Below, piece by piece: positions 32,135 to 57,539 of a stretch of 64,000 nt of DNA. Origin of the DNA: an uncultured Candidatus Saccharibacteria bacterium (GTDB taxonomy: Bacteria > Patescibacteriota > Doudnabacteria > UBA920). Both the position numbers and the translations under genes were made by a program. The number at the start of each line of letters is the position of its first letter. The stretch's first letter is position 1. The stretch spans positions 113-64,112 of the forward strand of contig CAYJQY010000006.1 in NCBI GenBank assembly GCA_964372905.1, given 5' to 3'. Under the pieces are notes generated by a model, which did not search any database, had not been told where the DNA came from, and was given only the letters and a program-made list of their open reading frames with translations.

Positions 32135-32145
32135 GTCAGTGATAT

Positions 32146-35105: not shown

Positions 35106-35106
35106 A

Positions 35107-36081: not shown

Positions 36082-36090
36082 ATAATTTGT

Positions 36091-37389: not shown

Positions 37390-37400
37390 TGGATTATGTA

Positions 37401-37430
37401 AAATAAAAAAGGGCCTCGCTTCCGAGGTCC
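37401..37430 (-). terminator. candidate attenuator terminator upstream of aroA (hairpin + U-tract)
   Basis: Minus strand ggaccucg-gaag-cgaggccc followed by uuuuuuauuuu. A 5-bp GC stem is extended by 2 bp after an A·C mismatch. It lies 12-40 nt upstream of the aroA start codon. Confidence 0.45.
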
Positions 37431-37458
37431 TTACTGTGTATAACTTTAAATCAGAGTT

Positions 37459-37557
37459 CTACATAGCAACAAACACCTCGGCACGCGGGGTAAAGGAGAA
37501 ATACCAGAAATTGCTGATTGTGCGGGCGATTGAACTCATATAACGACAGTATAGCAT
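37459..37557 (-). CDS. candidate aro-operon leader peptide rich in Phe/Trp/Tyr codons
   Basis: The minus-strand ORF ATG CTA TAC TGT CGT TAT ATG AGT TCA ATC GCC CGC ACA ATC AGC AAT TTC TGG TAT TTC TCC TTT ACC CCG CGT GCC GAG GTG TTT GTT GCT ATG TAG encodes MLYCRYMSSIARTISNFWYFSFTPRAEVFVAM, with a second in-frame ATG at 37539. Its stop lies ~30 nt before the hairpin. Confidence 0.4.
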   Translation of the reverse strand: MLYCRYMSSIARTISNFWYFSFTPRAEVFVAM

Positions 37558-37575
37558 AGATAAAATTGCTGTCAA
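37548..37575 (-). promoter_or_regulatory. sigma70-like promoter for the aro operon / leader (TTGACA-16-TATACT)
   Basis: Minus-strand reading TTGACAgcaattttatctatgcTATACT. It shares the aatttTATGCTATAnTGT module seen at 9580 and 59266. Confidence 0.45.
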
Positions 37576-37714
37576 CTTTGATATGTTTGGCACACCCTTT
37601 TGTTTAAATGTGACCTAACGTGGCGAACTGAAATAAAAATACCGCCGCTGAGCTGTGGGGGATAAAAATCTATTTGACAAAATTGTCGGCATAGAATATA
37701 GTTCAGATATTCTT

Positions 37715-37804
37715 ATGTTCAATTCCTCCGAAAAACGCGCTGTTTCCCTGTCCTGGTGGTGGACTCTGCCCTCTCCGCAAAGTCCGCGTTTTTCCCGTGC
37801 ATAA
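37715..37804 (+). CDS. candidate trp leader peptide with three consecutive Trp codons
   Basis: ATG TTC AAT TCC TCC GAA AAA CGC GCT GTT TCC CTG TCC TGG TGG TGG ACT CTG CCC TCT CCG CAA AGT CCG CGT TTT TCC CGT GCA TAA encodes MFNSSEKRAVSLSWWWTLPSPQSPRFSRA. Its stop lies 25 nt before a strong terminator that abuts trpE. Confidence 0.55.
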   Translation: MFNSSEKRAVSLSWWWTLPSPQSPRFSRA

Positions 37805-37829
37805 GCTAGTCGTTTAACACAGCTTTCCA

Positions 37830-37871
37830 CGCCTTCCGGACCGTTGCGGAAGGCGTTTTTTATTTTGCTTT
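37830..37871 (+). terminator. rho-independent terminator (trp attenuator) immediately upstream of trpE
   Basis: A perfect 9-bp stem pairs cgccttccg with cggaaggcg around the loop gaccgttg, followed by ttttttattttgcttt. The trpE ATG lies at 37883. Confidence 0.75.
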
Positions 37872-37882
37872 ATTCTTTCTTT

Positions 37883-39238: not shown

Positions 39239-39243
39239 AACAT

Positions 39244-39858
39244 ATGAAAATTCTCCTGATCGACAACTACGATTCGTTTACCTATAACCTCTACCAGCTG
39301 GCGGGCGAACTGTTGGAAAACCGAGGCAAGCCGTTTGTCTTGGATGTTGTTAGAAACGATGCCATTACAGCAAAAACGATTCGTGATAAAGGCTACGACA
39401 GGATTATCATTTCCCCCGGACCGGGCGATCCGGCTGATGAATCTTATTTTGGGATCTGCAGACAGGTACTGCTCCAGATTGGTCAAACCACACCAGTATT
39501 GGGTATTTGTCTAGGCATGCAGGGACTAGCTCATTGTTACGGCGGTAAGGTTACCAAAGCGCCCATCCCCATGCACGGAAAAACCAGCCAGATCTGCCAT
39601 AATAGCAGCGGCGTCTTTGCCGGCCTGCCGGACAATCTCGAAGTCATGCGCTATCATTCTCTCATAGTTGATAAACGCTCCCTCCCCGCCTCGCTGGCCA
39701 TTACGGCCGAAACCACAGATAACAACAAAGAAATTATGGGGCTGAAGCACAAAAAATATCCCATTGAAGGCGTCCAGTTCCATCCTGAATCATTTGCCAC
39801 CGAATACGGCGCGCGCCTGCTGGAAAACTTTTTATCAAACCCTTTAACCCAGAAATAA
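39244..39858 (+). CDS. trpG: anthranilate synthase component II (glutamine amidotransferase)
   Basis: Class I GATase triad context: GICLGMQ, and HPE near the C-terminus. Confidence 0.88.
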   Translation: MKILLIDNYDSFTYNLYQLAGELLENRGKPFVLDVVRNDAITAKTIRDKGYDRIIISPGPGDPADESYFGICRQVLLQIGQTTPVLGICLGMQGLAHCYGGKVTKAPIPMHGKTSQICHNSSGVFAGLPDNLEVMRYHSLIVDKRSLPASLAITAETTDNNKEIMGLKHKKYPIEGVQFHPESFATEYGARLLENFLSNPLTQK

Positions 39859-40863
39859 ATGCATCCCCTGCTATACAAACTGCAACTGGGTGAGAGGCTG
39901 GATTTTAGCCAAGCTCGCCAGCTGCAATCAGAAATCCTAAACGGGTCAATACTGACCGATGTATTACTTGATATTCTGCGAGCGTTCAACCGTACCTTAA
40001 CACCCGATGAATTTGCCGGACTGTTTGCCGCTTCCGAGGAAGCCATGATTCCGGTAGCGGCTAAAGTCCAAGCTCTCGATACTTGCGGCACCGGCGGTGA
40101 TGGCCACAATACCTTTAATATCTCCACGGCCGCGGCAATCATTTGCGCCGGGGCCGGAGTCGCGGTCGCTAAACACGGCAACCGGTCGGCCAGCAGTTTA
40201 TGCGGCAGCGCCGATGTCCTGGAAGCGCTCGGCGTAGATATTAACTTAAGTCCATTCCTAGCAGCCCAATATTTACAACCGGGCGCTATGGTGTTTTTAT
40301 TTGCGCGTTCATTCAATCCAGCATTCAAACATGCGGCAGAAGCGCGCAAACAATTTAACAAGCCGACCTATTTCAATTTCCTCGGTCCCCTGCTTAATCC
40401 AGCCCACGCGCCCTCCCGGTTACTCGGCGTCGCCGACCCGAGCATGATAGAAATTATGGGCCAAACTTTAATTCAATCAGGAGTGAAACGGGCCTGGCTA
40501 TTCCACAGCCAGGACGAATTAGACGAAATCAGCACTGCTGGACCAACCACGATTTATGATTTTTCTGCCTCAAGGGCCCCAAAGGTTTTTTTGCTTGATC
40601 CTCAAGCTTACGACCTACCGGCCTATGCTATTGCAGATTTGGCTGGCGGCACGGCTGAAACGAATGCTGAAATAATTAGAAGCATTATGAAAAACCGGGC
40701 CACCGATGCACAAAAGACTGCAGCCATATTAAATGCGGCGGCGGGTTTAGTAGTCGCCGGTAAAGCTCAAAATTTTGGCCAAGGCCTGGAATTAGCAGAA
40801 AAATCTTTGCAAAGCGGCGCGGCGAACAAAGCGTTACAGACCCTAATTAATATTGGAAAATAG
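39859..40863 (+). CDS. trpD: anthranilate phosphoribosyltransferase
   Basis: GTGGDG motif, KHGNRS, and the overall TrpD glycosyltransferase family 3 pattern. Confidence 0.9.
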   Translation: MHPLLYKLQLGERLDFSQARQLQSEILNGSILTDVLLDILRAFNRTLTPDEFAGLFAASEEAMIPVAAKVQALDTCGTGGDGHNTFNISTAAAIICAGAGVAVAKHGNRSASSLCGSADVLEALGVDINLSPFLAAQYLQPGAMVFLFARSFNPAFKHAAEARKQFNKPTYFNFLGPLLNPAHAPSRLLGVADPSMIEIMGQTLIQSGVKRAWLFHSQDELDEISTAGPTTIYDFSASRAPKVFLLDPQAYDLPAYAIADLAGGTAETNAEIIRSIMKNRATDAQKTAAILNAAAGLVVAGKAQNFGQGLELAEKSLQSGAANKALQTLINIGK

Positions 40864-41629
40864 TATGGACCTGCTTCAACAAATTATAACGACAAAGCGA
40901 CAGGAAATTGCCGCGGCAAAAAAACTTAGGCCGCCTAAAGTTTTGCAAAGTCTAATACCTTCAAACAGCTCGGGTCGCAACCACATGCGCAAAAAAAATA
41001 AGATGCAATTAATTGCCGAAATTAAAGCCAAGAGTCCGAGCAAAGGCATTATCCGTCCAAAATTTAATCCGGTCGAATTGGCAAAGGAGTTCGAAAATAG
41101 CGGAGCCAATGCCATTTCTGTTTTGACTGATGAAACTTATTTTGGCGGGAGCCTACAGGTCTTAGAACAAATTCGATTTACAACTCAACTCCCTCTCCTC
41201 CGTAAAGATTTTCTCATTGATCCCTATCAATTGCTTGAGACTAAAGCTTATGGAGCTGATATAGTCCTGCTGATAGCGCGCATACTGGACGATAATCTAC
41301 CCACCTTTTTAGCAATCAGCCAAGAACTCGGATTGCAACCATTGATTGAAGTCCATACCCAAGCAGAATTAACCCAGGTATTGAAACAAGTGAAACCAAA
41401 CGAAACTATTATGGTCGGGGTAAACAATCGCGATCTCAATTCATTCGCTACCGACATGAATATCAGCCTGCAATTAGCCGAACATATTCCCGCCCCATTT
41501 ATTAAAGTATCTGAAAGCGGCATTCATGGCCAGGCAACTTTGAAATTGCTGGCGCAGGCCGGTTTCGATGCCGTACTCATCGGAGAGGGGCTGGCGCAGA
41601 ATCCAACATTAACGACATTCCTTCAATAA
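40853..41629 (+). CDS. trpC: indole-3-glycerol phosphate synthase
   Basis: [12 protein letters not shown] and [11 protein letters not shown] match the IGPS TIM barrel. Confidence 0.88.
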
Positions 41630-41630
41630 G

Positions 41631-42821
41631 ATGAACACTACTCATAAACCAGGATACTTTGGCGAATTCGGCGGGCAATATGTTCCGGAAACCCTGATGA
41701 GCGCGCTTGCGGATCTGGAGCAATCTTACCATTCTTATCAAAAAAATAAGCAGGAACAAAAACTGCTTCAGCAACTACTAAAAGACTATGTCGGTCGGCC
41801 GACTCCGCTTTACCATGCCAAACAATTATCAAAACAATTACATGCCGACATCTACCTGAAGCGGGAAGATTTGGCTCATACCGGCGCCCACAAAATCAAC
41901 AATGCACTAGGTCAAGGTTTGCTGGCGCGCTCCATGGGTAAATCCCGGCTCATTGCCGAAACCGGAGCAGGACAACACGGCGTGGCCACTGCTACGATAG
42001 CGGCCAGCCTGGGTATGCGCTGCACCGTGTATATGGGCACGCGCGACATTGAACGGCAGAAACCCAATGTCTTCCGGATGAAACTGCTGGGCGCCGAAGT
42101 AATCCCGGTTCGAGCAGGCAGCCAAATATTAAAAGACGCCATTAATGAAGCCCTTCGCGATTGGATTGCCAACAGAGATAGCACCCACTATCTCTTAGGT
42201 TCAGTGCTTGGCCCTCACCCCTACCCAACCATAGTTAGAGATTTTCAAACAGTTATTGGCAAAGAGGCCCGCAAACAAATTATAGAACAAGTCGGATGTT
42301 TACCCGACTACCTCATTGCCTGTGTCGGGGGAGGCAGCAATGCCATTGGCTTATTCCACCGGTTTCTCAAGGATCGCGAAGTCCAAATGATAGGGGTGGA
42401 AGCAGGAGGTCTGGGAATAGCTTCCGGGCAGCACGCCGCGCGGTTTGCCGGCGGTAAAACCGGCATTTTGCACGGAACAAAATCTTATGTGCTTCAAGAC
42501 TCCTATGGCCAAATTAAAGAAACGCATAGTGTGTCGGCCGGACTTGATTATCCCAGCATTGGACCCGAACACAGTTTTCTCCATCGCATAAAAAGAATTA
42601 AATATATCCAGGCTACCGACCAACAGGCCTTGCAAGCCTTTTCACTACTGTCCAGGACCGAGGGGATTATTTCTGCTTTGGAATCCGCGCATGCTATTGC
42701 TGGCGCCGTCAAAATGCATCGCCAGTTCAAAAAAAGCACACGGCGTCCTCTAGTAATCATCAACCTTTCCGGCCGAGGAGATAAAGATTTGGATACCGCC
42801 ATTAAACATTTATCTTTATGA
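41631..42821 (+). CDS. trpB: tryptophan synthase beta chain
   Basis: The PLP-lysine region [10 protein letters not shown] and GGGSNA are present. Confidence 0.93.
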
Positions 42822-43618
42822 ACCGGATCACCAATACTTTTGACCAGCTGCAAAAAAATTCACAAACGGCTTTTATGCCTTTTGTGGTAGCCGGGGATCC
42901 AAATTTTTCTACTAGCCTCAAAATTCTCCGGCTGCTCACCCGATCGGCGGATGTTTTAGAAATCGGCTTCCCCTACTCTGACCCGTTAGCCGATGGCCCT
43001 ACCATTCAAGCAGCAGACGAACGGGCACTAAAATCCAGTATGAATACAGATAAAGTGTTTGATTTAATTCTAGCGGTCAGAAAATCGACTTCCATCCCGA
43101 TTAGCGTGCTCGTCTACGCCAATTTGGTTTTTCGATACGGTATCAATCGGTTCTACCAGCGGGCCAAACAAGTTGGCATTGACGGAATCCTCATTCCTGA
43201 TATTCCCGTGGAAGAATCAGCGCCATACTTAAAGGCAGCCAAAAAATACGGCATTGACCAAATTTTCCTGGTTACCCCGACTACTTCACCACACAGATTG
43301 AAAAAGATTCTCGCTGTAGCCCAGGGCTATATCTATCTTGTTTCGCTGCTGGGCGTTACCGGAGCCCGCACAAAACTTCATCCGTCGACATTACGACTGA
43401 TCAAAAAAATTAAGAAACAAACTCAACTCCCAGTAGCGGTTGGATTCGGCATTTCAACTGCTGATCATGTAAAAGCCGTCACAAAAGTCGGTGTAAATGG
43501 ATACATAATCGGCAGCGCCCTTATCAACATCATCGGCAAGCACGGCAAAAATAGATCCTTATTTCCAGCAATCAAGCGGTATATACAAACCGTAACTTCA
43601 CCAAGTCATGGCTCCTAA
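42818..43618 (+). CDS. trpA: tryptophan synthase alpha chain
   Basis: [28 protein letters not shown] and GFGIS motifs. Confidence 0.9.
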
Positions 43619-44231
43619 AGTAAAAATCTGCGGGGTGCGCACTATCAACGCCGCCCAAACAGTCGAAGCTTGCGCCGGAGATTTTATCGGCCTGAATTTT
43701 GTGCCCAGTTCCAAACGTTTTGTTAGCATCGAGCAAGCTAAAAATATAATTGACGCTCTTCCTGTGGAGCGAAAAGTAAAAATTGTTGGCGTATTTAAAG
43801 ACCAGTCATTATCTGCAATCCAGACTGTGCTTAATCAAATCCCTCTAGACTTCGTTCAGCTCCACGGACAAGAAGATCCAGAATTCTGCTCGCAAATATC
43901 CCTGCCCGTAATTAAGGCTTTTGCTTTACCGGCCAATTTTGATATAGAAACTCTTAAACAAAAGATGGCTCAATACAAGATGGCCATATACTTAGTCGAT
44001 CGCCAAGTCCTCGGGCAAGGACAATCACTTAATACCGGTAGAGTGAAACAACTAACGAATGAGTTCCCCATTATGTTAGCCGGCGGGTTAAGCCCCGAAA
44101 ACATTGCCGAAATTTTAGCCCAGGTCAACCCCTACGCAGTAGATGCCGCGGGAGGCGTAGAGACTCATGGTCAACAAAATGAACAAAAAATCATACAATT
44201 CATACAAAAGGCTAAAGGAAAGCTGGGCTAG
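43608..44231 (+). CDS. trpF: phosphoribosylanthranilate isomerase
   Basis: KICGVRT, DFIGLNF and VQLHG motifs of the PRAI TIM barrel; last gene of the trp operon. Confidence 0.85.
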   Translation: MAPKVKICGVRTINAAQTVEACAGDFIGLNFVPSSKRFVSIEQAKNIIDALPVERKVKIVGVFKDQSLSAIQTVLNQIPLDFVQLHGQEDPEFCSQISLPVIKAFALPANFDIETLKQKMAQYKMAIYLVDRQVLGQGQSLNTGRVKQLTNEFPIMLAGGLSPENIAEILAQVNPYAVDAAGGVETHGQQNEQKIIQFIQKAKGKLG

Positions 44232-46051: not shown

Positions 46052-46336
46052 CTACTGAAACGGATCAGCTACAGTCGCGGGCGGGTTCTGGGAACTAACT
46101 TCCTGGCCCGCCTCGATTATTTTTACCGCTTCATCGTAGGCGGTAAAATTGACCCGCACCGACCGGCTGGGAAAAGGCACCGGCGGCTCCCCGCGCAAAC
46201 CCGGCATAATGGCAAGCGACCGCCACAGGACCAGAACTTCCAGAACCAGTAACACGATTAATACAATCCAAAATAACGACGTAGCGTTACGTTTGAATCG
46301 GGCGATTAAATCGGAAAAAGACAGATTAAACTTCAT
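46052..46336 (-). CDS. small single-TM protein of the pilus assembly cluster (PilP-like?)
   Basis: 94 aa with an N-terminal TM helix, translationally coupled downstream of pilO; no recognised motif. Confidence 0.35.
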   Translation of the reverse strand: MKFNLSFSDLIARFKRNATSLFWIVLIVLLVLEVLVLWRSLAIMPGLRGEPPVPFPSRSVRVNFTAYDEAVKIIEAGQEVSSQNPPATVADPFQ

Positions 46337-46878
46337 TTGGTGATAAAAAATGTGGCGTTAAAAACAGCCGTGACGTCGTCGCCTTGCGAGTTTATCGCAA
46401 TTGTTTTTACGTGGGTGACAAAACTCAAGCGTTCCATAGTCTCGAGAAACGCCACCACGTTCGGAAACGGACCGGTAAGGGTAACGGTATACGGGATACT
46501 CAAAATTTCGCCCTTGACGTTAGGGGTTTTAGCCCCGCTTTGCGCCGTGCCCGAAACACTTAGCCTGAAATCTAAGCCGGTTCCATTCCCTAACGCCTCC
46601 AAGGTCTTAATTTCATTAACCACCCGAACATCTTTGCTAAAAAAGTCATCGGGATGATGGGGCTTTTGCGTTAAAGCATCGATATCCTGCTTGCCGAGCT
46701 GATAATTCCGCAGTTCATTTTGGAGATCGGTGAGCTGCTTGCGCTGGTCAGTTACGGCCAGGGCCAAAGCGGCGTTACTGCGGTCCAACAATTTGAAGCC
46801 GTACAAGAACAACACAAGGCAGCCGACTAGATAGACGGCGGCAAGCGCATAAATTTTTTGCTTATTGGACCAGTTCAT
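46333..46878 (-). CDS. pilO: type IV pilus assembly protein PilO
   Basis: Single N-terminal TM helix, coiled coil, then a ferredoxin-like periplasmic domain; sits in pilM-N-O order. Confidence 0.65.
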   Translation of the reverse strand: MNWSNKQKIYALAAVYLVGCLVLFLYGFKLLDRSNAALALAVTDQRKQLTDLQNELRNYQLGKQDIDALTQKPHHPDDFFSKDVRVVNEIKTLEALGNGTGLDFRLSVSGTAQSGAKTPNVKGEILSIPYTVTLTGPFPNVVAFLETMERLSFVTHVKTIAINSQGDDVTAVFNATFFITK

Positions 46879-47447
46879 GGAATGTCTTTTGCCTGGCTAA
46901 TGAAGCTGTCCTTGATATAAAAAGTGAAGTGAAAAGCTACGTCAGTCGGTTTTTGGACATTTTCCAGGGGGTAATCGATATTCTCGAATTCGGCCCTATC
47001 CTGACTAATATTATTGTACAAGGCAATTACTGCTTCACGCGTCGGGCTAGTGCCCCGAATATCAATCTGCTTTTTGCTCAAATTGCCCTGAAGATTAGTA
47101 ATAACTAAATCTGGGGGCACTTGGGCGGCAAAAGCCCGCAGCACCCGCGACCAGGCGGGAGTGGCATCGATCAATGTTTTAAAATCCGTGATTTCGCTAT
47201 TGATAAAGGCAATCCTTTTTTTAAGTTCAGCATTTTCCTCGCGGTTGGATTGGCGCTTAAGCTGCTCAATCTCTGCGACAATGACGCTCTGCTGCCGCTC
47301 TAAATACAGCTTGGTCACGATTTGACCCACAAAAACCACGGCTACGGTAATTAAGCTCAATTCGATCAATACCACGAAACTGCGAAAAATACCTTCGTAG
47401 TAAAGTTCTTTTTGCTTGTCCTTGGGAAGAAGATTAATGATTTTCAT
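46875..47447 (-). CDS. pilN: type IV pilus assembly protein PilN
   Basis: Short cytoplasmic N-terminus (INLLP motif), one TM helix, a coiled coil and a periplasmic domain. Confidence 0.7.
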   Translation of the reverse strand: MKIINLLPKDKQKELYYEGIFRSFVVLIELSLITVAVVFVGQIVTKLYLERQQSVIVAEIEQLKRQSNREENAELKKRIAFINSEITDFKTLIDATPAWSRVLRAFAAQVPPDLVITNLQGNLSKKQIDIRGTSPTREAVIALYNNISQDRAEFENIDYPLENVQKPTDVAFHFTFYIKDSFISQAKDIP

Positions 47448-47459: not shown

Positions 47460-48515
47460 TTACATAAGCGTCCTCATAACCAAACCAATGGCCGCCGTAA
47501 GTCCCAACGAATCAAAAGCGGGCAAAGGCGGCTCGGCCAAGTGCGGAATATTTTGCCACGGGTTTGCCACTTCAATCTTGACATCATCCCCCTCCTTAAT
47601 TTCAGCTTGCAAATATTCCGACAGATTTTTCATTTTTGCCATGCCGCCGCTCAAAACTATCTTGCCGACTTTTTCCTGGGAGTGGTCATAGTGAAATTTA
47701 AGGATGTTCTTGATTTCCTCGCTCAAATTAGTAAGCAGGGGCAGGAGCGCAGTCTTGATGTTGGGATACTCGGGAGTATTGTCGATGCCGATTTGCCGTT
47801 TGATCTTTTCGGCCTGTTCGCTGGACACGCCCAAGGTTTGGGCAATGCGCTCGGTAAAGCTGTTGCCGGCAATGGGGATGGACGAGCTAAACTGCAGATT
47901 GCCCTGTTCGACCATAATCAGATTGGTCTTGAACGAGTCCAGATCAACAATCAACGAAGTCTCCGTGCTGCCGGGCGCTATCAGCGCGCGCTCCAGGCTC
48001 TGCGACTCAACCTCAATGGCGACAATATTCAAATGGGCTTTTTCCAAAGTGTGAATGTATTTATCAACGGTTTCCTTGGGCGAAGCAATAATCAGAACGG
48101 CCATGCGGCCGTCTTTGGTGCCCAAGACCTGCCAGTCAAAATAAACCTGGTCAATGGGCAGAGGAATATAGGCCTCGGCCTCGAACGGCACGGCGTTCTC
48201 CAGCTCCTGTTCGCTCATTACAGGCAGATGAATAACGCGCACGAACGATTTGGTCTCCGGCAAACTGACGATAACCCGGTTGGTGTTTATCCGTCCGTAG
48301 GCCGGCTGTTGCAAGCACTGCTCGATGAACCGCGCCAGGGTATTCTCGTCGAGAATGGTGTCGCTGGCCACCACGTTTTTGGGCAGGTTGGCATTGGCAA
48401 AACTGCGCACGCGCACCGCAGGCCCGCTGCGTTCCAGCTGCATCATCTTGACCGCCGTGCCGTTGAGCTGGAGGCCGAAGGCCGGCAATGCTATTTTGAA
48501 GGGGTTAAATTTCAT
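47460..48515 (-). CDS. pilM: type IV pilus assembly ATPase-like protein PilM (actin fold)
   Basis: 351-aa ASKHA/actin-like two-domain pattern, at the head of the pilMNO block. Confidence 0.75.
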   Translation of the reverse strand: MKFNPFKIALPAFGLQLNGTAVKMMQLERSGPAVRVRSFANANLPKNVVASDTILDENTLARFIEQCLQQPAYGRINTNRVIVSLPETKSFVRVIHLPVMSEQELENAVPFEAEAYIPLPIDQVYFDWQVLGTKDGRMAVLIIASPKETVDKYIHTLEKAHLNIVAIEVESQSLERALIAPGSTETSLIVDLDSFKTNLIMVEQGNLQFSSSIPIAGNSFTERIAQTLGVSSEQAEKIKRQIGIDNTPEYPNIKTALLPLLTNLSEEIKNILKFHYDHSQEKVGKIVLSGGMAKMKNLSEYLQAEIKEGDDVKIEVANPWQNIPHLAEPPLPAFDSLGLTAAIGLVMRTLM

Positions 48516-48534
48516 TCTTCGGATTATTATTTAT

Positions 48535-48620
48535 TGCCTCGCCGGTTGCCCGCAAGCAGCAGAGTTGCGCCTATGTTCACAGGTAGCAAATGCTGCTTGC
48601 CGGGCAATCCGGCTCGGCAA
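48535..48620. repeat. REP-like palindromic intergenic element, copy 1
   Basis: cctcgccggttgcccgcaagcagcagagttgcgc-[15-nt loop]-gcaaatgctgcttgccgggcaatccggctcggc. The long imperfect inverted repeat lies between pilM and pilC. Confidence 0.7.
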
Positions 48621-48629
48621 AGATATAAA

Positions 48630-49889
48630 TCATTGAATCGTTTGACTGATATTATAAATCGGACCAATGAGGGCGAGGGCTAAAAGGCCGACCACGCCGC
48701 CGATAACCAACAGCAGAAGCGGCTCAATGATTGAGGACAGATTGCGCATGGTATCGTCGACTTCGGTTTCGTAATGCGCGGCTAATTGCTCCAAAATATT
48801 TTCAATGGTGCCGGTTTCTTCCCCCACTTCCAGCATTTGTGTAACAATGTAGGGAAATAATTTTTCGTTCTGGCTAAAAGCCTCGGTGAGCGGCTTGCCG
48901 ATGCGGACGTTATTGGCCGTCTCACTCGCGACTTCGCGGTAATAAATGTTTCCCAGCGCGTCGCCGCTGACCTTTAGCCCCTCGACAATGGCAATGCCGC
49001 TTTTGAGCATGGAGCCGAGGATGCGGGAAAAGCGGGCCAGATTGATTTTCTTAACGATGGGGTTGATTACCGGCATGTGGAGCAAAAACCAGTCAAAGCC
49101 GCGCTTGCCGGCCGGGGTGCGCAAAAAATAGAATAATCCCCCGACAAAAACAATAAGCCCAACTATTACGGTCACGGAATGAGCGGCCATGAAATCGCTT
49201 ATGGCAATAACTATGCGCGTGGCCAAAGGCAGCTGGGTATTGAATTCCTTGAAAATCGAAGTCAGTTTCGGCAAAACGAAAATAGCCATGAGGAGCCCGA
49301 TTAAAACCATGGCCGACACAATGACCGCCGGATAAATCATGGCGCCTTTGGTCTTGCTTTTTAAGTCGGCCTCGCGTTCCAACTGGTTGCTTAAATAATC
49401 GAGGCTTTTTTCGAGATTGCCCGACATCTCCCCCACCTTAATCATGCTGATAAAAATATTGGAAAAAATACTGGGGTAGGCACCCATTGCCTCATGCAAA
49501 CTTTTCCCCGATTCCACGCCCGCGGCCAGGTCGCTGAGGATTTTTTTAAATTTTTTATTTTTAGTCTGATGAGCCAAAATGGCTAAAGCCCGCGGCCCGG
49601 CAATGCCGCTTTTGAGCATGATGGCAAAATCTTCAATAAAGACGATTTTTTCCTTCAGCGGAACCGTGCCAAAATTCCGCAGCAGGCCCAGCAGGGACGA
49701 ACGGCTCTGTTCTTCCTTTAATTCAATGGGCAACAAGCCCTGCTCTTTGAGCAGGTGGCCGGCCGCCAGCGTGGTGGCGGCATCAATGGTTCCGGATTGT
49801 TTGCCGCCCCCAGTAGCCAGGGCAGTGTAAAGAAAGCGTGGCATATTAGTAATTATCTCTTCTCGCCGCCGAGCCAGTTTGCCCGGCAA
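48630..49889 (-). CDS. pilC: type IV pilus assembly platform protein PilC (GspF family)
   Basis: Two GspF-type repeats with 3 TM helices; 419 aa. Confidence 0.85.
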   Translation of the reverse strand: MPGKLARRREEIITNMPRFLYTALATGGGKQSGTIDAATTLAAGHLLKEQGLLPIELKEEQSRSSLLGLLRNFGTVPLKEKIVFIEDFAIMLKSGIAGPRALAILAHQTKNKKFKKILSDLAAGVESGKSLHEAMGAYPSIFSNIFISMIKVGEMSGNLEKSLDYLSNQLEREADLKSKTKGAMIYPAVIVSAMVLIGLLMAIFVLPKLTSIFKEFNTQLPLATRIVIAISDFMAAHSVTVIVGLIVFVGGLFYFLRTPAGKRGFDWFLLHMPVINPIVKKINLARFSRILGSMLKSGIAIVEGLKVSGDALGNIYYREVASETANNVRIGKPLTEAFSQNEKLFPYIVTQMLEVGEETGTIENILEQLAAHYETEVDDTMRNLSSIIEPLLLLVIGGVVGLLALALIGPIYNISQTIQ

Positions 49890-49950
49890 GTAGCATTTGC
49901 ACCGAGGTACATTTGCGCAACTCTGCTACTTGCGGGCAGCTGGCGAGGCG
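49864..49950. repeat. REP-like palindromic intergenic element, copy 2 (inverted orientation)
   Basis: Its reverse complement (cgcctcgccagctgcccgcaagtagcagagttgcgc...gcaaatgctacttgccgggcaaactggctcgg) aligns with copy 1. It lies between pilC and pilB. Confidence 0.7.
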
Positions 49951-49962
49951 ACCAATGCATGA

Positions 49963-51723
49963 CTATTCTCTCGTGACTCTTAATATCTCTTCGATAGTGG
50001 TGACTCCCCGGACGGCCTTAATGAAGCCATCTTGCCACATGAGGATCGTGCCTTTGGCTTCGGCCAAGTCTTGGATTTCCTGGCTGGCCGCGCGTTTAAT
50101 GATCATTTCCCCTATTTCCGACGTAACCTCGAGAATTTCATGGACGCCCAGGCGTCCGCGGTATCCAGTATGGTTGCATTTGTCGCAGCCCTTGCCTTTA
50201 TAAAATTTCAGATCCTCGAATTTGCCGGTTTTGGCGGGTATGACTTTTTCGCGCTGAAGAACTTTCATCAATTTGTCGAGGTCGAACTGTTTGCGCAACG
50301 TGGCGGCGGTGGCTTCATCCACGTCCATCTTCTCTTTGCAATCCAGACAAATAATGCGCACCAGGCGCTGGCCCATAACCGAGTTGATGGTGGAGGCAAT
50401 GAGGTACGGCTCTTCGCCAATGTCAATTAAGCGCGGCAAGGCGCCGGCCGCGCTGTTGGTATGCAAGGTTGAGAGTACAATATGCCCGGTCATAGCCGCG
50501 TGCATGGCTTCCTCGGCCGTTTCCCGGTCGCGGATTTCTCCGATCATAATAATATTCGGATCCTGACGCAGCAGGGAGCGCAAGCCCAGAGCAAACGTCA
50601 AGCCGATTTTAGGGTTAACCTGCATCTGGTTAGTGCCGGGGATGTGGTATTCCACCGGGTCTTCGATCGTAGAAATATTTACGTTCTTGGTATTCAAAAT
50701 AGTCAAGATGGCATAAAGCGTCGTGGACTTGCCGCTGCCGGTCGGTCCGGTTATCAAAATCATACCATGCGGTTTGTGAATGCTTCGGCTGACCAAATCC
50801 AATTGCTGCGGCAAAAATCCCAGCTGCTCCAGGGTCAAGGCCTTGCTCGATTCATCAAGTAAACGCATTACCACTTTTTCGCCGTCGAACACGGGAATAG
50901 TGGACACGCGCAAACTGTACTTGTAGCCCTCTTTTTCCAGCTTGAACCGGCCGTCCTGCGGCAGACGGTGCTCATCAATTTTTAAATCCGCCAGAACTTT
51001 TATGCGCGCTACCAACGCAGCATGAATAACTTTGGGCAAAGTCATAACATCGTGGAGCACGCCGTCAATGCGGTAGCGCACGGTCACGGCGTTTTCTTGC
51101 GGCTCAATGTGAATATCCGAGGCCTTTTCTATGACCGCGTATTCGAGAAGCGTGTCCACCACCTGAATGACCGGAATTTCCTCGGCCATTTTTTTGAGCT
51201 CTTCGGCCAGGCCGGCGGCGCTCACGGCGCCAGAACCGCCCGCTTCCGTAGTCTTGCCCTCATCCACCAAGTGCTGAATTTCCCCTTCCAAATTGGAATG
51301 ATATTTTGACAGGCCGAAATCCAAACTCTGCTTGCCGATAAGATAGGCCTTGATGGACAACCCGGTCTTCTTTTTCATGAACTCCTTGGTCTGGATGTCA
51401 GTGGGGTCAACCATGGCCACGGACAGCTCGTTCTTGCCTTTGGCGAAACTGATGATCTTGTGGCGGTGGGCAATGGGCTCGGGCACCAAATTCAGGACCT
51501 CCGGCGCGATATTTTGGTCGCGCAGGTCAATCACCGGCACGCCCAGGGCCTGGCTCTTCAATTCCAGCAACGCTTTCTCATCGATAATTTTTTGGTCGAT
51601 AAGAAAGTCATCCCATTCCATGGGCTTATTCAAATGTTTAGCTTCTGCTTCCAGCTCTTTCAGCCGATCCGCGGTAACGATTTTTTTTTCTTTGAGGAGC
51701 TGATTCAGCTCGGTGGTGATCAT
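49963..51723 (-). CDS. pilB: type IV pilus assembly ATPase PilB (GspE family)
   Basis: Walker A GPTGSGKST, Asp box, Walker B and His box are present, with a tetracysteine zinc site (CLDCKEK...CDKCNHTGY) and an N-terminal GSPII domain. Confidence 0.92.
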   Translation of the reverse strand: MITTELNQLLKEKKIVTADRLKELEAEAKHLNKPMEWDDFLIDQKIIDEKALLELKSQALGVPVIDLRDQNIAPEVLNLVPEPIAHRHKIISFAKGKNELSVAMVDPTDIQTKEFMKKKTGLSIKAYLIGKQSLDFGLSKYHSNLEGEIQHLVDEGKTTEAGGSGAVSAAGLAEELKKMAEEIPVIQVVDTLLEYAVIEKASDIHIEPQENAVTVRYRIDGVLHDVMTLPKVIHAALVARIKVLADLKIDEHRLPQDGRFKLEKEGYKYSLRVSTIPVFDGEKVVMRLLDESSKALTLEQLGFLPQQLDLVSRSIHKPHGMILITGPTGSGKSTTLYAILTILNTKNVNISTIEDPVEYHIPGTNQMQVNPKIGLTFALGLRSLLRQDPNIIMIGEIRDRETAEEAMHAAMTGHIVLSTLHTNSAAGALPRLIDIGEEPYLIASTINSVMGQRLVRIICLDCKEKMDVDEATAATLRKQFDLDKLMKVLQREKVIPAKTGKFEDLKFYKGKGCDKCNHTGYRGRLGVHEILEVTSEIGEMIIKRAASQEIQDLAEAKGTILMWQDGFIKAVRGVTTIEEILRVTRE

Positions 51724-51741
51724 GTTTTTGTTTCAGGAAGT

Positions 51742-51838
51742 CCCTCGCCTCGCCAGTTGCCCGCGAATAGCAGAGTTGCACATATGTTTCTCGGAGCAAA
51801 TGCTATTCGCCGGGCAAGCTGGCTCGACAGCTTCAAGT
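51742..51838. repeat. REP-like palindromic intergenic element, copy 3
   Basis: ccctcgcctcgccagttgcccgcgaatagcagagttgcac-[loop]-aaatgctattcgccgggcaagctggctcg. The stem differs from copy 1 by paired compensatory changes. It lies upstream of pilB. Confidence 0.7.
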
Positions 51839-51937
51839 TAAAAAAGATTCGCAGGAAAGCCAAAAAGGATTTTTGGCCGGCTTTTTTATCATTAAGCCTC
51901 ATTCTTAATAAATTATAGCACAAAACGGAACAAAAAT

Positions 51938-51972
51938 CAAAAAGCTCCCCCTGCTAAGGAGAGCTTTTATTA
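51938..51972 (-). terminator. rho-independent terminator downstream of secreted-protein gene 52005..53510
   Basis: The hairpin agctccccctgctaaggagagct is flanked by A/T runs on both sides. Confidence 0.45.
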
Positions 51973-52004: not shown

Positions 52005-53510
52005 CTAGGGATTGAGTTGGCCGGCTACTCGGGAAGTCATTACTCCTTGTTGAGCTATGGTCTTGTCAGCGGTGTTGGCCGCTACAACATCGGACAAACT
52101 ATAGCCCCAGGAGGTAAAGACCGCCATGGAAGGAATGCCCATCAAACTGGATTGGCCAACTAATTGAATAGTGCCGCTATTGTTAACCAGGACTCCCGGA
52201 CGGTGCGCCTCGGTTGAGCTGGCTATGTTGGAGGTCTTGCTTAAGAATGACGAGTCGCCGTACTGGGCGCGACTAAAGGAAAAGCCCAGACCTTTGAACA
52301 CGGCCTCACTGGTAAAGGACGCCTTCTGGCCGCCGGTTATAAGAGCGCATTCGCCTTTTACGTCCGTACCCTTAGCTGCTGTCGCGCAGAACAGACTGCC
52401 GTCGCGCGGGGCGATGAAAGCTCCCTGCGGCAGGGCCAAGTCACCGGTGTTGGCAATGACCACCTGGCTCCAGGAAAGGAAACCGTAGGACAAGAACGCT
52501 CCGGCGGAAGTAAAGGCGCGGCGCATGTTGTCGCCGGTAATAAACCAGACCGTGCCGTCGGAGGTCTTGATCACGCTTCCGGCGCTATGCGCACCGCCTG
52601 TTGGCGGGGAGGCAACTCCGGGTTTAACCGCTAAAGCATAAACACTGAAGTGAGTCAAATTGACCGTAATGGTATTATTGACTGTGTCCACTACCACGGG
52701 CAAGGTTTCCCACTGGGCAGTGGCGCTATTGTAAAACAACACCGTCAGATTGCTTTCGTTGGTACCCGGAGGCAATTGGGATTCGTTATAGCTGAAGGTA
52801 ACGGTTACGGCGCTGTTGAAGTTGGTCACCGCAGTGCCGTTGCTGGAAGCAGAAAGAGTAAAGGGCATACCAACCAGGGCAGTGGCCCCCGCAGTGCTAA
52901 TACCCACCGTAATGCCGGCATTGGCTAACGTGGTCGTGCTGACGTTTACTGTGGTATTGCTGCCCACCGCGCCAGGAGGCACAGAGACTTGCACACTGGG
53001 CGTGCCAGTGTCGCTGGGAGTGTAAGTAGTGGTTCCTCCGGCAGAAGGCGTGGCTGTTACCGACCCCGTAGTGGTAGAAGGCCCAGACGGAGCAGATCCG
53101 CCGCCACCGCCACCGCCACCGCCACTGAAACAGGCAGTGGATGTCGGGGTCAGAGTGATATTTTCCACGGAAGAACCAGAGGCAATAACTATAGTTTCCA
53201 CTCTCGATCCGCTACAACTCGTAGTAATGGTAGCTTGATTAGTTTGACCAGAGATACTCATATGTCTGCTTGCCGAAGTCAGCGTGAACGTCGTATCGGC
53301 CGGCAAAGTTACAACTATACTATCGTCATTAACAACGAGAGAGTCGGCCTCCGAACCAGCTATAATGGTTAGGTCAATATCTGGCGCAGTCAAGGCGACC
53401 GTGGTGTCAGCGTCGTAAGTAAGGTCCTGCGCAAAGGCGATACTGGCCCCGGCTAAGCTTATGCCCAATCCCAGACCTACCGCAACTAGCCGCCTAAGAT
53501 ATTTTTTCAT
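52005..53510 (-). CDS. secreted Ser/Thr/Gly-rich surface protein with C-terminal ~170-aa FTSAGAF-repeat domain
   Basis: Signal peptide MKKYLRRLVAVGLGLGISLAGASIAFA. A poly-Gly run (GGGGGGGGG) and T/S-rich beta regions are present. The C-terminal domain is shared with the 55299..57539 protein. Confidence 0.6.
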   Translation of the reverse strand: MKKYLRRLVAVGLGLGISLAGASIAFAQDLTYDADTTVALTAPDIDLTIIAGSEADSLVVNDDSIVVTLPADTTFTLTSASRHMSISGQTNQATITTSCSGSRVETIVIASGSSVENITLTPTSTACFSGGGGGGGGGSAPSGPSTTTGSVTATPSAGGTTTYTPSDTGTPSVQVSVPPGAVGSNTTVNVSTTTLANAGITVGISTAGATALVGMPFTLSASSNGTAVTNFNSAVTVTFSYNESQLPPGTNESNLTVLFYNSATAQWETLPVVVDTVNNTITVNLTHFSVYALAVKPGVASPPTGGAHSAGSVIKTSDGTVWFITGDNMRRAFTSAGAFLSYGFLSWSQVVIANTGDLALPQGAFIAPRDGSLFCATAAKGTDVKGECALITGGQKASFTSEAVFKGLGFSFSRAQYGDSSFLSKTSNIASSTEAHRPGVLVNNSGTIQLVGQSSLMGIPSMAVFTSWGYSLSDVVAANTADKTIAQQGVMTSRVAGQLNP

Positions 53511-53547
53511 AAGGCATAATAGTTAATTGTTAAAGGATTGGTTAAGC

Positions 53548-54987
53548 TTAGGGGGCTACTGATGCCATTGCCGTCCAGGTATTTGCGGCGGTGCAAGCAT
53601 ATATCGTCGAGTCTGCGTCGCCATCGGTCCTTAGGAACATGCTTCCCTGCGCACAATCAGAGGTCGGGGCACCAGTACCAGTAGAAATAGTAACGCCGCT
53701 AGACAGCCGGATATCAGCCGTGCCGTAAGAGACTGCTTGGTAACTGTCTATTGCTCCGCTGAACAAATCCAAGCCGTAATCGAACTTAGAGGCCGCGGTA
53801 GAGTTCAAGTACCGAACTCCATATGCAGCACCGGGGGTCATAACCGCTGCTGGATCACCTCCAAGCACAGCCAAAATGGCCGCGTCTGCAGTACCATTTT
53901 CGTCTTCGCCGACTTCGCCGATAACGCCGGCCGCAGGGTAATCACTGGCGTTGGTGTCAACACTGTATTTGCCGATAACGCCGGCGATGTCGCTGACGCT
54001 GGTGGGATCAACAGTGCCCATAACATTTCCCATGACCGCACCGCCATAACTGCTACCTATGAAGTCACTAAGTGTCGCGTCCGCTTCGACTGATTGCTGA
54101 GACTCGCCGTCACTGGCACCAAATGTCGGGCTTAAAACAATCTTTGCGCCGCTAGTGGCGCCGACATCAGCCGCTGCGCCGCCAATGGTAATTGCTCCAT
54201 TAGTGGCGTTGGAGATCGTCTCGCCGTTTTGCAGGCGAATATCCGCTGTGTCAAAACTGACGGCCTTGAAATCACCGACAGCGGCGTGGAAGAGATCAAT
54301 ACCATAGGTAAATTTGCTAGTATCGAGTGTGTTCAGATACTGCACCCCATAAGCAGCATTGGCGGTAACCAAGTAGCTGGGATCGCCGCCGTCCAAGACA
54401 GCCATGAAAGCGGCATCAGCCACGCCGTCAGTTTCTGCATCAACTCCAATGGTGGCAACAACTCCGGCTTTCGGGCCAGTCAAATCGTCAGCAGTGGTCA
54501 CAGAGTAAGCGCCGATCACGCCGGCGTGGTAGCCGGCAACGGTATTGGTAAGATCATCGCCGTGGAAGTGACCCATTACAGCGGCGTGGAAAGAACTCGT
54601 GCCGCCGGCCGCGCCTTCGTATGTAAGATCACTGGCCACGGGCTGGAAAGAACCTGTGGCGGCAGTGGCTCTGGTTACCTCGTAAGTAAGACTGCCCGCG
54701 CCGCCGTTAATGGTGACGCCGCCTGTTGTAAAATCTGCGCTGCCGAGGGTCAAGCTGCCTGTAGTCAGCGCCTCGCCAATGGCGATACTGCCAGTAGTAT
54801 TCGCGCCGCCAACGGTCAGGGCTGATATGGCTGCTGAATTAACGGTCAGCGCGGCGTCAGAAACCACAGAAGTTGCGCTGAACGTCAGCGCTGCATAGGC
54901 TGCCGAGGCGGCCACAAAGAAAAACGCCAGCGACAGCGCAAACACCGAGGAAGCACGGTAACCAGCTTGAAAAGAGAATATTTTCAT
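53548..54987 (-). CDS. secreted protein with internally duplicated ~190-aa domain
   Basis: N-terminal hydrophobic signal. Two homologous halves (...AGVIGAYSV...GVQYLNTLDTSKFTYGIDLF...ADIRLQNGETIS, then ...AGVIGKYSV...GVRYLNSTAASKFDYGLDLF...ADIRLSSGVTIS). Gly/Ala/Thr-rich. Confidence 0.55.
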   Translation of the reverse strand: MKIFSFQAGYRASSVFALSLAFFFVAASAAYAALTFSATSVVSDAALTVNSAAISALTVGGANTTGSIAIGEALTTGSLTLGSADFTTGGVTINGGAGSLTYEVTRATAATGSFQPVASDLTYEGAAGGTSSFHAAVMGHFHGDDLTNTVAGYHAGVIGAYSVTTADDLTGPKAGVVATIGVDAETDGVADAAFMAVLDGGDPSYLVTANAAYGVQYLNTLDTSKFTYGIDLFHAAVGDFKAVSFDTADIRLQNGETISNATNGAITIGGAAADVGATSGAKIVLSPTFGASDGESQQSVEADATLSDFIGSSYGGAVMGNVMGTVDPTSVSDIAGVIGKYSVDTNASDYPAAGVIGEVGEDENGTADAAILAVLGGDPAAVMTPGAAYGVRYLNSTAASKFDYGLDLFSGAIDSYQAVSYGTADIRLSSGVTISTGTGAPTSDCAQGSMFLRTDGDADSTIYACTAANTWTAMASVAP

Positions 54988-55204
54988 ATTGTTTATTTTT
55001 TGTTTAATTATTAAAGTTATATTTTTTTAGTGATGATTCTCCTTTTAGAAAGGGAAAACTCGACCTATTTTCTGGCCTCTCGTTAAAGAAAACCATCACG
55101 CGAAATTTGAATTGCTTTAGTTTCTTGGACTCAAAGCTAATCTATACCTATAACGACTATAAAATAACGCCTACAATAAGTCAAACCCAAGAGTTATCCA
55201 CAAT

Positions 55205-55248
55205 ACATAGAATAAACAGCAAGAACCGCCCCGAAGGGCGGTTCTTGC
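55205..55248 (-). terminator. rho-independent terminator downstream of acidic secreted-protein gene
   Basis: A perfect 13-bp stem pairs gcaagaaccgccc with gggcggttcttgc around the loop cgaa, with a T-rich run downstream on the minus strand. Confidence 0.6.
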
Positions 55249-55298
55249 TGTAACGCTTACGCGTTACTCACTAACGCTTTAACCTATTCCATCATATA

Positions 55299-57539
55299 TT
55301 AGAAGACATTCAAGAACAGATCGTCTGTCTTGAATTCATCCAAGTTGAAGATGTAGTTGTTGTCGTTAGTGTCATCGATTTCAGTACCCCAGTTGATGGA
55401 CTCTATTTCTACGTTAACCAAGCCATCATCCCCTTCGACGATCACCGTTAGAGTGAACGATCGAGTGGTATCTTCGTCTACCTCAAAGACGTCCGCGTTG
55501 TCTTCGCTGTCAGACGTTGATGATGTCAAGGAACACGTAACTAGGGCCGCGCTGACGTCGGATACCTCAAATTCAATTCCTTCGCCTGCGTCGCCAATGG
55601 TGTCTTCGTCATCGCACGAACTGTCGATGCGCATGTCGTCATCAAAGGCGGTTGCCTTGAAGTTAACCTTGAAGGTGCCAACATCGGTTGAACCAACAGT
55701 TGCCGGATCACCAGGGGTAGTTACGGATGCGCTCGCGCTAACGAACGAGACCATAATACCTGCTTCGTAGAGAGCATGGAAATCAGGAACAGCAGTACCG
55801 GTGCGGTCGCCGGCAGCAAGATCCTCGCCCTCTTCGTCCTCAACGTCAATGGCGGCGCGCTCAACCGCGGTAACCTGCGCGCGAACGGTGTCGCCATCAA
55901 CAATACCGTCAGCAATTGACTGGAGGTCTGAAGTCACTTGGAACTCATGCTTGCCTGTATCGAGAGTCAAATCGAGGTCGTCGAAGATGATTGTCTCATC
56001 AGTTCCGGCCCCGGCCGGCACGTTTTCCGAGCCTACTTCATCACCGTCAACAATGAGGTGAACAGCGGAGATCGCGTCCTCCAGGTCCACCCCGACAGAA
56101 TCATAGTTAACCGGGAAGTCATCGATGGTTAAGTCAGACTGGCCTTTTACTTCCAAGATACCCGAGAGCAGCACTTCGTCATCGGTGTCGTCAACGTCAT
56201 CGATGTCAATAACGTGTGCTTCGTTAATGGCGTCGTCATCTTCATTGAGTGAGAGTTTCAGCTCAACGTCGGCTGAAGTCGCGAACGTCTCAAATGAGAA
56301 GGTTCGGAGAGCCGGCAGGTCGCCGGTTGCATCATCGGTCGTTGAAGCTCCCTGCGCATCGACAAAGCGAAGCGACTCAATCGTTACGTCCCAGGTATCA
56401 CCTTCATCGTCAGAGTCAAGATTGTTTATGCCAGAGACTGCAACGTAAAGATTCGCGGTAGCGTCTGACATGATCTTAGGACAGCCGGTGAGAGAGATTG
56501 TCCTGTCGTGGGCGTTGTCGTCGTTGAACTTATCCGCGTCAACGCGGGCAACCTCGGTGCTGCCAAGCCAGAGGGACACATCGGTAGCGAATTCATCAAA
56601 GTTGTCGTTCACGGCTGTATTCAGATCAAAGTTCACCCGGACAGCGGTTAAACGGATATCTGAACCGTCGTCTGCCTCGACTTCAAGGCCGGCGACTTTC
56701 ACATCGTCTTCACCCTCTCCCACTTCCTCGTTGCTGAGACTGGAGATCAGCTGGGCATCCTCGAGCGAACCGGCGCCGCCCGCGAGGGTGCAGTCGCCTG
56801 CAACCGGAGGAGGCGTGGTCGTGGTCAAGCTAGGCACTAACTGGCCCGCCATGCGGGAAGCGAGTACGCCGACTTGGGTAAGCGCGTTGTCAGCCGCGTT
56901 GGCCGGAACTGTGTTGTTGAAGGACATGCCCCAAGAGTTGAAGGTCGCAACGTCGGGGATGCCGATCAAACCGGAGTTGCCGACGAAGTAAACGGTACCG
57001 GCCTTATTGACCAAGCTGCCAGCAGGGTGCTGCATGGAAGCGCTGTCAATGTTAGAACCGGAAGCCATCCAGGAAACATCGGCGAAAGAACCATTGGCAA
57101 AATTAAAGCCAAGGCCGGTGAAGACCGAAGCAGAGGTAAAGCCGCGTCGCTGTACGCCGCCGCTACCGTCTAAGGCCATGAAATAACCCGTGCCTCTATC
57201 AGCGCCGCGATCCGAGAAGATGATAGTTCCCGGAGCGGGCGGGATGAAGGCGGGGGTGCACTGCGCGAGAGCTAAATCATCCGCGTTCGCATCAACAACT
57301 CCGGCAAAAGAATTGAAGCCGTAGCTCAAGAAGGCGCCGGCGGAAGTGTAGGCGGCTCGGCAGGGTCCGGGCAGAATCGACCAGATTGTACCGCTGGCGT
57401 TGACGTTCGTGCCAACAGCGTGAGCCGCGGCAAAAGCCGTGGTTGGCGCAAAGGCAAGAGCGGAAACAGCCATGGCAATGGACGATGCCACCGCAAAGAT
57501 TTTCCTTACTAAAGGAGAATTACTCATTATTAACTCCAT
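55299..57539 (-). CDS. secreted highly acidic (Asp-rich) surface protein with N-terminal FTSAGAF-repeat domain
   Basis: The signal peptide is followed by a ~170-aa domain homologous to the C-terminus of the 52005..53510 protein (AAYTSAGAFLSYGFNSF...RRGFTSASVFTGLGFNF...VATFNSWGMSF). Long D/E-rich beta segments follow (DIDDVDDTDDE...). Confidence 0.6.
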   Translation of the reverse strand: MELIMSNSPLVRKIFAVASSIAMAVSALAFAPTTAFAAAHAVGTNVNASGTIWSILPGPCRAAYTSAGAFLSYGFNSFAGVVDANADDLALAQCTPAFIPPAPGTIIFSDRGADRGTGYFMALDGSGGVQRRGFTSASVFTGLGFNFANGSFADVSWMASGSNIDSASMQHPAGSLVNKAGTVYFVGNSGLIGIPDVATFNSWGMSFNNTVPANAADNALTQVGVLASRMAGQLVPSLTTTTPPPVAGDCTLAGGAGSLEDAQLISSLSNEEVGEGEDDVKVAGLEVEADDGSDIRLTAVRVNFDLNTAVNDNFDEFATDVSLWLGSTEVARVDADKFNDDNAHDRTISLTGCPKIMSDATANLYVAVSGINNLDSDDEGDTWDVTIESLRFVDAQGASTTDDATGDLPALRTFSFETFATSADVELKLSLNEDDDAINEAHVIDIDDVDDTDDEVLLSGILEVKGQSDLTIDDFPVNYDSVGVDLEDAISAVHLIVDGDEVGSENVPAGAGTDETIIFDDLDLTLDTGKHEFQVTSDLQSIADGIVDGDTVRAQVTAVERAAIDVEDEEGEDLAAGDRTGTAVPDFHALYEAGIMVSFVSASASVTTPGDPATVGSTDVGTFKVNFKATAFDDDMRIDSSCDDEDTIGDAGEGIEFEVSDVSAALVTCSLTSSTSDSEDNADVFEVDEDTTRSFTLTVIVEGDDGLVNVEIESINWGTEIDDTNDNNYIFNLDEFKTDDLFLNVF

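Follow-up and report, generated by a model that had tools for sequence, protein, structure and literature searches.

Three copies of a hairpin repeat in the leader and spacers of a patescibacterial type IV pilus operon

The episymbiotic lifestyle of Patescibacteria relies on type IV pili. In the pilB-pilC-pilM operon of one such bacterium, three copies of a GC-rich imperfect palindrome of 86–89 nt (~87 nt) occupy the pilB leader and the pilB-pilC and pilC-pilM spacers, raising the question of what these elements are and whether they act on the pilus transcript. The locus lies within a 64-kb stretch (here called the window) of contig CAYJQY010000006.1 (assembly GCA_964372905.1), whose source organism falls within the Patescibacteria (candidate phyla radiation, CPR) near Candidatus Doudnabacteria; named relatives of its PilC and Tgt proteins are 65–77% identical. 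An earlier note on this DNA had taken the palindromes for a family similar to the repetitive extragenic palindromic (REP) elements of enterobacteria. Our analysis leads us, with about even confidence, to view them as three paralogs of a small hairpin repeat family specific to this lineage, inserted in either orientation and carried on the operon mRNA.

A covariance model built from the three copies (R1) and run over the whole window with filters off scored copy 1 at 107 bits (48534-48623, plus strand), copy 2 at 108 bits (49863-49951, minus strand) and copy 3 at 105 bits (51745-51833, plus strand), as compared to only 36–47 bits on the wrong strand. The core pattern GCAGAGTTGC-N8-24-GCAAATGC occurred three times in the window, with no occurrence expected from shuffles, and the element termini read GCCTCGCC and GGCTCGRC. 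The GC content of the elements is 56–62%, against 42% for the other intergenic DNA of the window. The positions and the consensus given in the earlier note thus proved essentially correct, as did its call of copy 2 as inverted with respect to the other two: the copies have in common asymmetric internal loops and bulges (a bulged C, a bulged N and GAG facing A), which render the orientation unambiguous. Such an inversion is as expected for inserted repeats.

Each copy comprises two 35-nt arms around a 16–17-nt apical loop. Its predicted fold has 30 base pairs—the hairpin put forward previously had ~25 bp—and is divided into five helical segments by internal loops (TC/TC and GAG/A) and two single-base bulges. 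Relative to shuffled sequences, the predicted free energies of −39 to −58 kcal/mol correspond to z-scores between −3.3 and −7.7 (copy 1, −55.6 kcal/mol on the plus and −57.6 on the minus strand; mRNA strand of copy 2, −53.5, and of copy 3, −44.4). The outer stem of copy 3 is partly degenerate.

Inspecting the inner stem revealed nine variable columns, eight of which form four pairs compensated within the same copy (A-U to G-C or the reverse). The covarying triplets recognized before, namely gcaagcagc/gctgcttgc, gcaagtagc/gctacttgc and gcgaatagc/gctattcgc in copies 1, 2 and 3, respectively, proved correct. In 10^6 simulations that placed independent substitutions at random, four compensated pairs were never reached. 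Pair-counting returned five double-changed pairs—equaled by 6 of 500 shuffles, which is near the floor for three sequences—and sliding the partners by 1–3 columns left 0–1 of them. All compensated pairs are transitions, each carried by a single copy. Bases in internal loops and bulges are invariant in nine of ten cases, while nine of 17 apical-loop columns vary (53%, versus 18% in the arms). The stem is thus kept as a stem, and its irregularities are conserved too.

Judging from the sequence, it is the hairpin rather than the primary sequence that the stems conserve, and the constraint may act on RNA or on folded DNA, as the data fit both; G-U versus C-A mismatches revealed no clear preference for the transcribed strand. 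The earlier view that the hairpin rather than the sequence itself is conserved hence holds. Compensatory change alone does not prove selection on an RNA, since hairpin-templated correction of quasi-palindromes could also yield it, and REPINs—REP doublets forming hairpins—commonly display the same compensatory pattern (Bertels & Rainey 2011, PMC3116915).

The copies sit in the 5′ leader and both intercistronic spacers of what is predicted to be one minus-strand transcription unit, part of a type IV pilus assembly cluster at 46–52 kb of the window (Pfam and open reading frame (ORF) list; Table 1). Both the intra-operonic positions and the identities of pilB, pilC and pilM had been read correctly beforehand, the latter being borne out by Pfam. 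Copy 1 is transcribed as its reverse complement and begins 9 nt after the pilC stop codon, ending 18 nt before the pilM ATG; copy 2, transcribed in element sense, is set off by 11 nt from the pilB stop codon and by 21 nt from the pilC ATG (49844, the start position used in homologs); and copy 3 follows the predicted transcription start by ~75 nt and leaves 21 nt to the pilB ATG. A terminator-like hairpin upstream and a promoter-like site before pilB suggest that pilB is probably the first gene of its transcript. From pilM through the pilN-like gene to the two small ORFs, spacers measure at most 12 nt or the genes overlap.

Table 1. Hairpin copies and surrounding features, in window coordinates
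Feature	Position	Strand	Details
Copy 1	48534-48620	+	pilC-pilM spacer; 5′ arm 48534-48568, apical loop 48569-48585, 3′ arm 48586-48620
Copy 2	49866-49951	-	pilB-pilC spacer; 5′ arm 49951-49917, loop 49916-49901, 3′ arm 49900-49866
Copy 3	51745-51830	+	pilB 5′ leader; 5′ arm 51745-51779, loop 51780-51795, 3′ arm 51796-51830
pilB	49963-51723	-	T2SSE/MshEN assembly ATPase, 586 aa; Pfam PF00437, E = 6e-130
pilC	48630-49844	-	T2SSF platform protein, 404 aa; Pfam PF00482; 404-aa database entry P0001
pilM	47460-48515	-	351 aa; Pfam PF11104
pilN-like gene	46875-47447	-	downstream of pilM; Pfam PF05137
Two small ORFs	46333-46878, 46052-46336	-	downstream of pilN-like gene; ORF list
Promoter-like site	51912-51940	-	TTGATT-17-TG-n-TATAAT; pilB transcript start predicted near 51905; consensus scan only
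Terminator-like hairpin and T-run	51940-51968	-	end of upstream 501-aa gene; consensus scan only

The pilB leader harbors a further, small AT-rich hairpin (GCCAAAAAGGATTTTTGGC, 51859-51877) between the predicted promoter and copy 3, which is terminator-like on the plus strand. As for initiation regions, no Shine-Dalgarno-like motif is visible in the 30 nt upstream of 40 window genes, the leaders being AU-rich instead. Copy 3 also marks an assembly break: two Logan contigs of run ERR4904390 (the end of L207 and the start of L118) abut with a 21-nt overlap at about 51810-51830, inside the copy 3 arm transcribed first (the 3′ arm in element sense), and the assembly of run ERR4904391 reads straight through. 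The break could be a strain bubble or have been induced by the hairpin or the repeat, and it carries a practical warning that such hairpins can break short-read assemblies.

Comparison with relatives whose PilC is at least 61% identical to that of the window revealed the occupied state to be derived. The pilB-pilC junction spans at most 19 nt in six of them (3, 2, 10, −1, 19 and 2 nt) and is expanded in five; the pilC-pilM junction spans at most 34 nt in ten (34, 22, 8, −4, −1, 22, 6, 9, −1 and 1 nt) and is expanded in two. The two closest relatives lack the element at all visible junctions, with a pilC-pilM spacer of 34 nt in L120 (84% PilC identity) and pilB-pilC and pilC-pilM spacers of 3 and 22 nt, respectively, in L121 (78%). 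Given these short junctions and those elsewhere in this genome, where other operon junctions measure at most 12 nt or overlap, the elements are best read as insertions into originally tight junctions. The pilB-pilC-pilM gene order is conserved in relatives without elements. Homology of the element to the pilB-pilC spacer of L120 (at least 85 nt) was considered and rejected as not significant (p = 0.03–0.75 in six tests), and sequence divergence among the relatives was too great for empty sites to be aligned.

What kind of repeat does the element resemble? REP units measure 20–40 bp, carry a GTAG/CGTC end tag and occur in high copy number (PMC3733652). The likeness to classical enterobacterial REPs and bacterial interspersed mosaic elements (BIMEs) extends to a palindromic, GC-rich and intra-operonic nature, and ends there: the element is 86–89 nt long with 35-nt arms, and GTAG/CTAC is found only inside copy 2, with GCAG and ATAG at that place in copies 1 and 3. 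Of the earlier likening to REP elements, the anatomical analogy to a palindromic intergenic repeat survives, while membership in the classical REP class does not. REPINs come closer, as the element combines two inverted conserved arms of ~35 nt, a less conserved 16–17-nt spacer, four to five compensated pairs, an extragenic location in either orientation and a hairpin of ~90 nt that could form in single-stranded DNA or mRNA. Conserved arms and loops around a varying center are indeed the pattern expected if arms and termini were recognized and the center were a spacer, as in REPINs. Unlike REPINs, which number tens to hundreds per genome and depend on a REP-associated tyrosine transposase (RAYT), the element is known from three copies in one operon, with no RAYT seen and no GTAG/CGTC-tagged REP unit recognizable in its arms.

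ERIC (also IRU) and Correia (NEMIS) elements, which are bacterial MITEs (miniature inverted-repeat transposable elements; PMC2229807, PMC2649163), share with our element terminal inverted repeats forming long arms, a size of ~100 bp that is below ~200 bp, a location between genes and a transcript predicted to fold into a long stem-loop. They are co-transcribed and alter segmental mRNA stability, involving RNase E for ERIC in an orientation-dependent manner and RNase III for Correia (PMC2229807). ERIC and Correia are dispersed in tens to hundreds of copies and have short or 24-bp terminal inverted repeats, TA termini and target-site duplications. The present element, by contrast, is a single hairpin from end to end, with neither target-site duplication nor TA terminus, no dispersed copies in 64 kb and no sequence similarity to either family. 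By this analogy, the element looks, and would probably work, like a REPIN/MITE-type repeat; we do not file it as a member of any named family.

Other identities were considered for the elements and rejected. None of the copies is followed by a U-tract on the transcribed strand, and a terminator scan did not list them, which speaks against intrinsic terminators. A consensus scan found no promoter-like site inside the elements, so an internal promoter was likewise rejected. The same applies to a remnant of a duplicated coding fragment, an origin that the earlier note had itself raised as a caveat and that the ORF list and a protein database dismissed. Only tRNAs passed the Rfam gathering threshold in the window; the best sub-threshold matches on the elements were microRNA precursor models (20–23 bits), which reflect a generic hairpin only.

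Several results weigh against a mobile repeat family, even a small one. In the window, the next best R1 match scored 20 bits, leaving three copies in total. These occupy three consecutive junctions out of 54, with none at the other 51; random placement would produce this with a probability of ~0.002. A dispersed mobile family would not usually show such an arrangement, which is in keeping with selection specific to the operon or with local duplication. R1 detected no family member in 15 related pil loci, nor in 80 metagenomic PilC loci totaling 649 kb. A stricter 23-base pattern had no match in JGI metagenomes and IMG/VR, blastn none in the PLSDB plasmids, and six-frame peptides of the copies none among 5.8 billion protein clusters. 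Where target-site duplications or TA termini were sought, only chance matches of 2–4 nt at inconsistent offsets emerged, and transposase, RAYT and Y1_Tnp domains were absent from the 30 window proteins scanned, a set that leaves out several ORFs, the largest among them. If anything, the data in hand favor the possibility, foreseen in the earlier note, of only three copies arisen by local duplication.

A genome-wide family was not seen: beyond the related loci and public collections above, no copy was detected in ~60 kb of flanking genome, and R1 had no match in additional contigs from this organism. In a reference genome collection, a gapped core pattern of 18 bases hit at least 117 loci, and the matches listed were all chance matches without flank similarity. 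The contig was found in three sequencing runs only, and the window proteins led to overlapping contigs only in other assemblies. No insertion sequence was found in the window.

How might such copies affect the pilus genes? Under the repeat-family reading, elements with the anatomy of REPINs and ERIC/Correia-type MITEs would have inserted into the only non-coding slots of the pilB-pilC-pilM unit. Most likely co-transcribed with it, each copy would furnish the mRNA with a ~30-bp stem-loop of −44 to −58 kcal/mol, kept as a stem by compensatory change and ending 18–21 nt before the next start codon, such that the AU-rich initiation region would be left free. If expression is affected, the effect would be the generic one of a stable mRNA hairpin, which may be cut by an RNase III-type enzyme, block exonucleases or interrupt translational coupling. 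The 30 predicted pairs would suffice for the duplex of ~20 bp or more that RNase III requires. REPs at malE-malF, studied by Newbury et al. in 1987, reportedly shield the mRNA upstream of them from 3′ exonucleases. That the elements act as a sequence-specific riboregulator is improbable: the inversion of copy 2 excludes sequence-specific RNA recognition common to all three copies, and a shared RNA role must be that of a generic hairpin.

An alternative that we consider rather unlikely, and yet the strongest of those weighed, posits operon-specific cis-regulatory hairpins that arose by local duplication and were all three kept by selection. They would punctuate the pilB/pilC/pilM mRNA in the manner of the RNase III sites in the early region of phage T7, a family of irregular hairpins, related to one another and containing internal loops, that occupy the leader and the gaps between successive cistrons of one polycistronic transcript. 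By analogy, the three elements, as sites of processing or stability control, could determine the relative amounts of the three proteins in an organism without Shine-Dalgarno sequences. Both hairpin families share internal loops and a leader-plus-intercistronic placement; the T7 sites are known to share a single orientation and to be cleaved, whereas here one copy is inverted and the hairpins are known from sequence. The exclusive clustering at three consecutive junctions of one operon speaks for this alternative, as do the strong compensatory covariation with conserved internal loops, the regular placement (18–21 nt before each ATG and 9–11 nt after each stop codon) and the lack of Shine-Dalgarno motifs upstream of window genes. 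Against it, the RNA of copy 2 is the complement of the other two, making a common sequence-specific RNA signal impossible, the elements are absent from the nearest relatives, and the mismatches betray no clear strand bias.

The relatives' own spacers bear on this alternative from both sides. Among 11 close relatives, four of the five expanded pilB-pilC spacers contain long hairpins (L123, L126, L129, L130), the fifth, in L120, being cut at the contig end and holding a weak one. L123 and L126 share a similar AT-rich hairpin at this spacer despite PilC proteins that are only 68% identical. The long hairpins that most of the expanded spacers hold are unrelated to the element and often of low complexity—of the GAATTATGAA type in L123 and L126, the AGTACTT type in L126 and the ACTAGT type in L130—and similar ones also occur at non-pil sites of those genomes. 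In a rough survey with a small sample and crude gene calls, structured spacers (z ≤ −3) were no commoner at pil junctions (3 of 13 and 2 of 8 long spacers) than at other same-strand junctions (27 of 112), and there is thus no good evidence for a pilus-specific demand for hairpins.

Further observations concern these relatives in their own right. ACTAGT/GGAAC-rich low-complexity hairpins recur in two Doudnabacteria-like genomes, in the pilB-pilC spacer of L130 (5940-5997) and at non-pil sites of L126 (637-661 and 18128-18197), a recurrence that suggests dispersed hairpin-repeat families in the clade. Upstream of its pil operon, L126 (68% PilC identity) carries a 230-nt nested palindrome (5660-5890, −127 kcal/mol) with inverted copies of ACTGTCATCCTGAGTGAAACGAAGGATCT. 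Another relative with 68% PilC identity, L214, has a reverse-transcriptase (RVT_1) gene near its pil operon (17589-18626), which may represent a retron or a group II intron.

Less probable still, to our mind, is a recently evolved operon-specific control module, in which a captured palindromic repeat would punctuate pilB, pilC and pilM through RNase III-type processing or stability barriers and would uncouple translation, in a genome lacking Shine-Dalgarno sequences. In that case, sister lineages would have met the same need convergently, with the unrelated hairpins found at these junctions.

Two remaining explanations are less likely than operon-specific hairpins of local origin. That the copies are functionless quasi-palindromes, compensated by hairpin-templated (template-switch) correction and persisting because the spacers tolerate them, seems distinctly improbable. 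It would accord with all compensated pairs being transitions in single copies, with the elements having no tie to a phenotype and with relatives doing well without them. However, template-switch correction should erase bulges and internal loops as well, and these are instead almost invariant while the apical loop drifts.

Least of all do we believe in DNA-level sites, at which a recombinase, an HUH enzyme or a regulator would bind the palindromes as duplex or as folded single-stranded DNA; candidates are cassette boundaries of the attC kind, Xer-type sites and operators on either side of pilB and pilC. Recognition sites in folded DNA typically have conserved unpaired bases within a covarying stem and work in either orientation, and the window does encode a tyrosine recombinase, but this gene lies 31 kb away and looks like an ordinary Xer type, no HUH or RAYT gene was seen among the window proteins scanned, and the gene order persists in relatives lacking the elements. 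Integron attC sites (57–141 bp) in particular are likewise imperfect palindromes between genes, with conserved extrahelical bases and a covarying stem, and were rejected: the RYYYAAC/GTTRRRY cores are absent (the nearest match, GTTGCCC/GGGCAA, breaks the purine/pyrimidine pattern), the mixed orientation contrasts with uniform integron cassettes, no integron integrase is adjacent, and the flanked genes constitute a conserved core operon rather than cassettes. The recombinase gene (16320-17381; Phage_integrase and N-terminal SAM-like domains, 353 aa) is divergent from its neighboring gene.

Elsewhere in the window, three large minus-strand genes (52005-57539; 501, 479 and 746 aa) lie directly upstream of pilB. 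Without a Pfam match, their products may be pilus-associated or surface proteins, and in run ERR4904390 the 501-aa protein is accompanied by a strain variant. The 746-aa gene is preceded by a 630-nt non-coding region (57540-58169) with a nested hairpin of 23-bp arms (57994-58067) and a perfect-consensus promoter-like site (TTGACA-17-TATAAT, 58163-58135, minus strand), possibly a long structured leader or a small RNA. A further 961 nt without a convincing gene (12142-13102) contain a hairpin at 12948-13015 with 28-bp arms (89% complementary, −48 kcal/mol), unrelated in sequence to the pil elements and without an Rfam match. Finally, 28321-44231 encodes a near-complete aromatic amino-acid biosynthesis block, comprising genes for shikimate kinase, dehydroquinase II, chorismate mutase, prephenate dehydratase, prephenate dehydrogenase, an aminotransferase and anthranilate synthase together with trpD/C/F/B/A-like genes. 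To our knowledge, such pathways are normally lacking in Patescibacteria, which makes the block unusual.

Taken by itself, the element is a real and cleanly defined hairpin repeat in three copies. Its compensatory changes are convincing, and bacteria are already well known to carry repeats of this kind. In the Patescibacteria literature we found nothing relevant on such a repeat, which has apparently not yet been described there, and we know of almost nothing on gene regulation in these organisms. Should the copies be merely tolerated insertions, they would add one more small palindromic repeat family. If, on the other hand, the hairpins shape the pilBCM transcript, they would offer a simple, testable case of post-transcriptional control in Patescibacteria, as well as an example of repeat 'tinkering' creating control.

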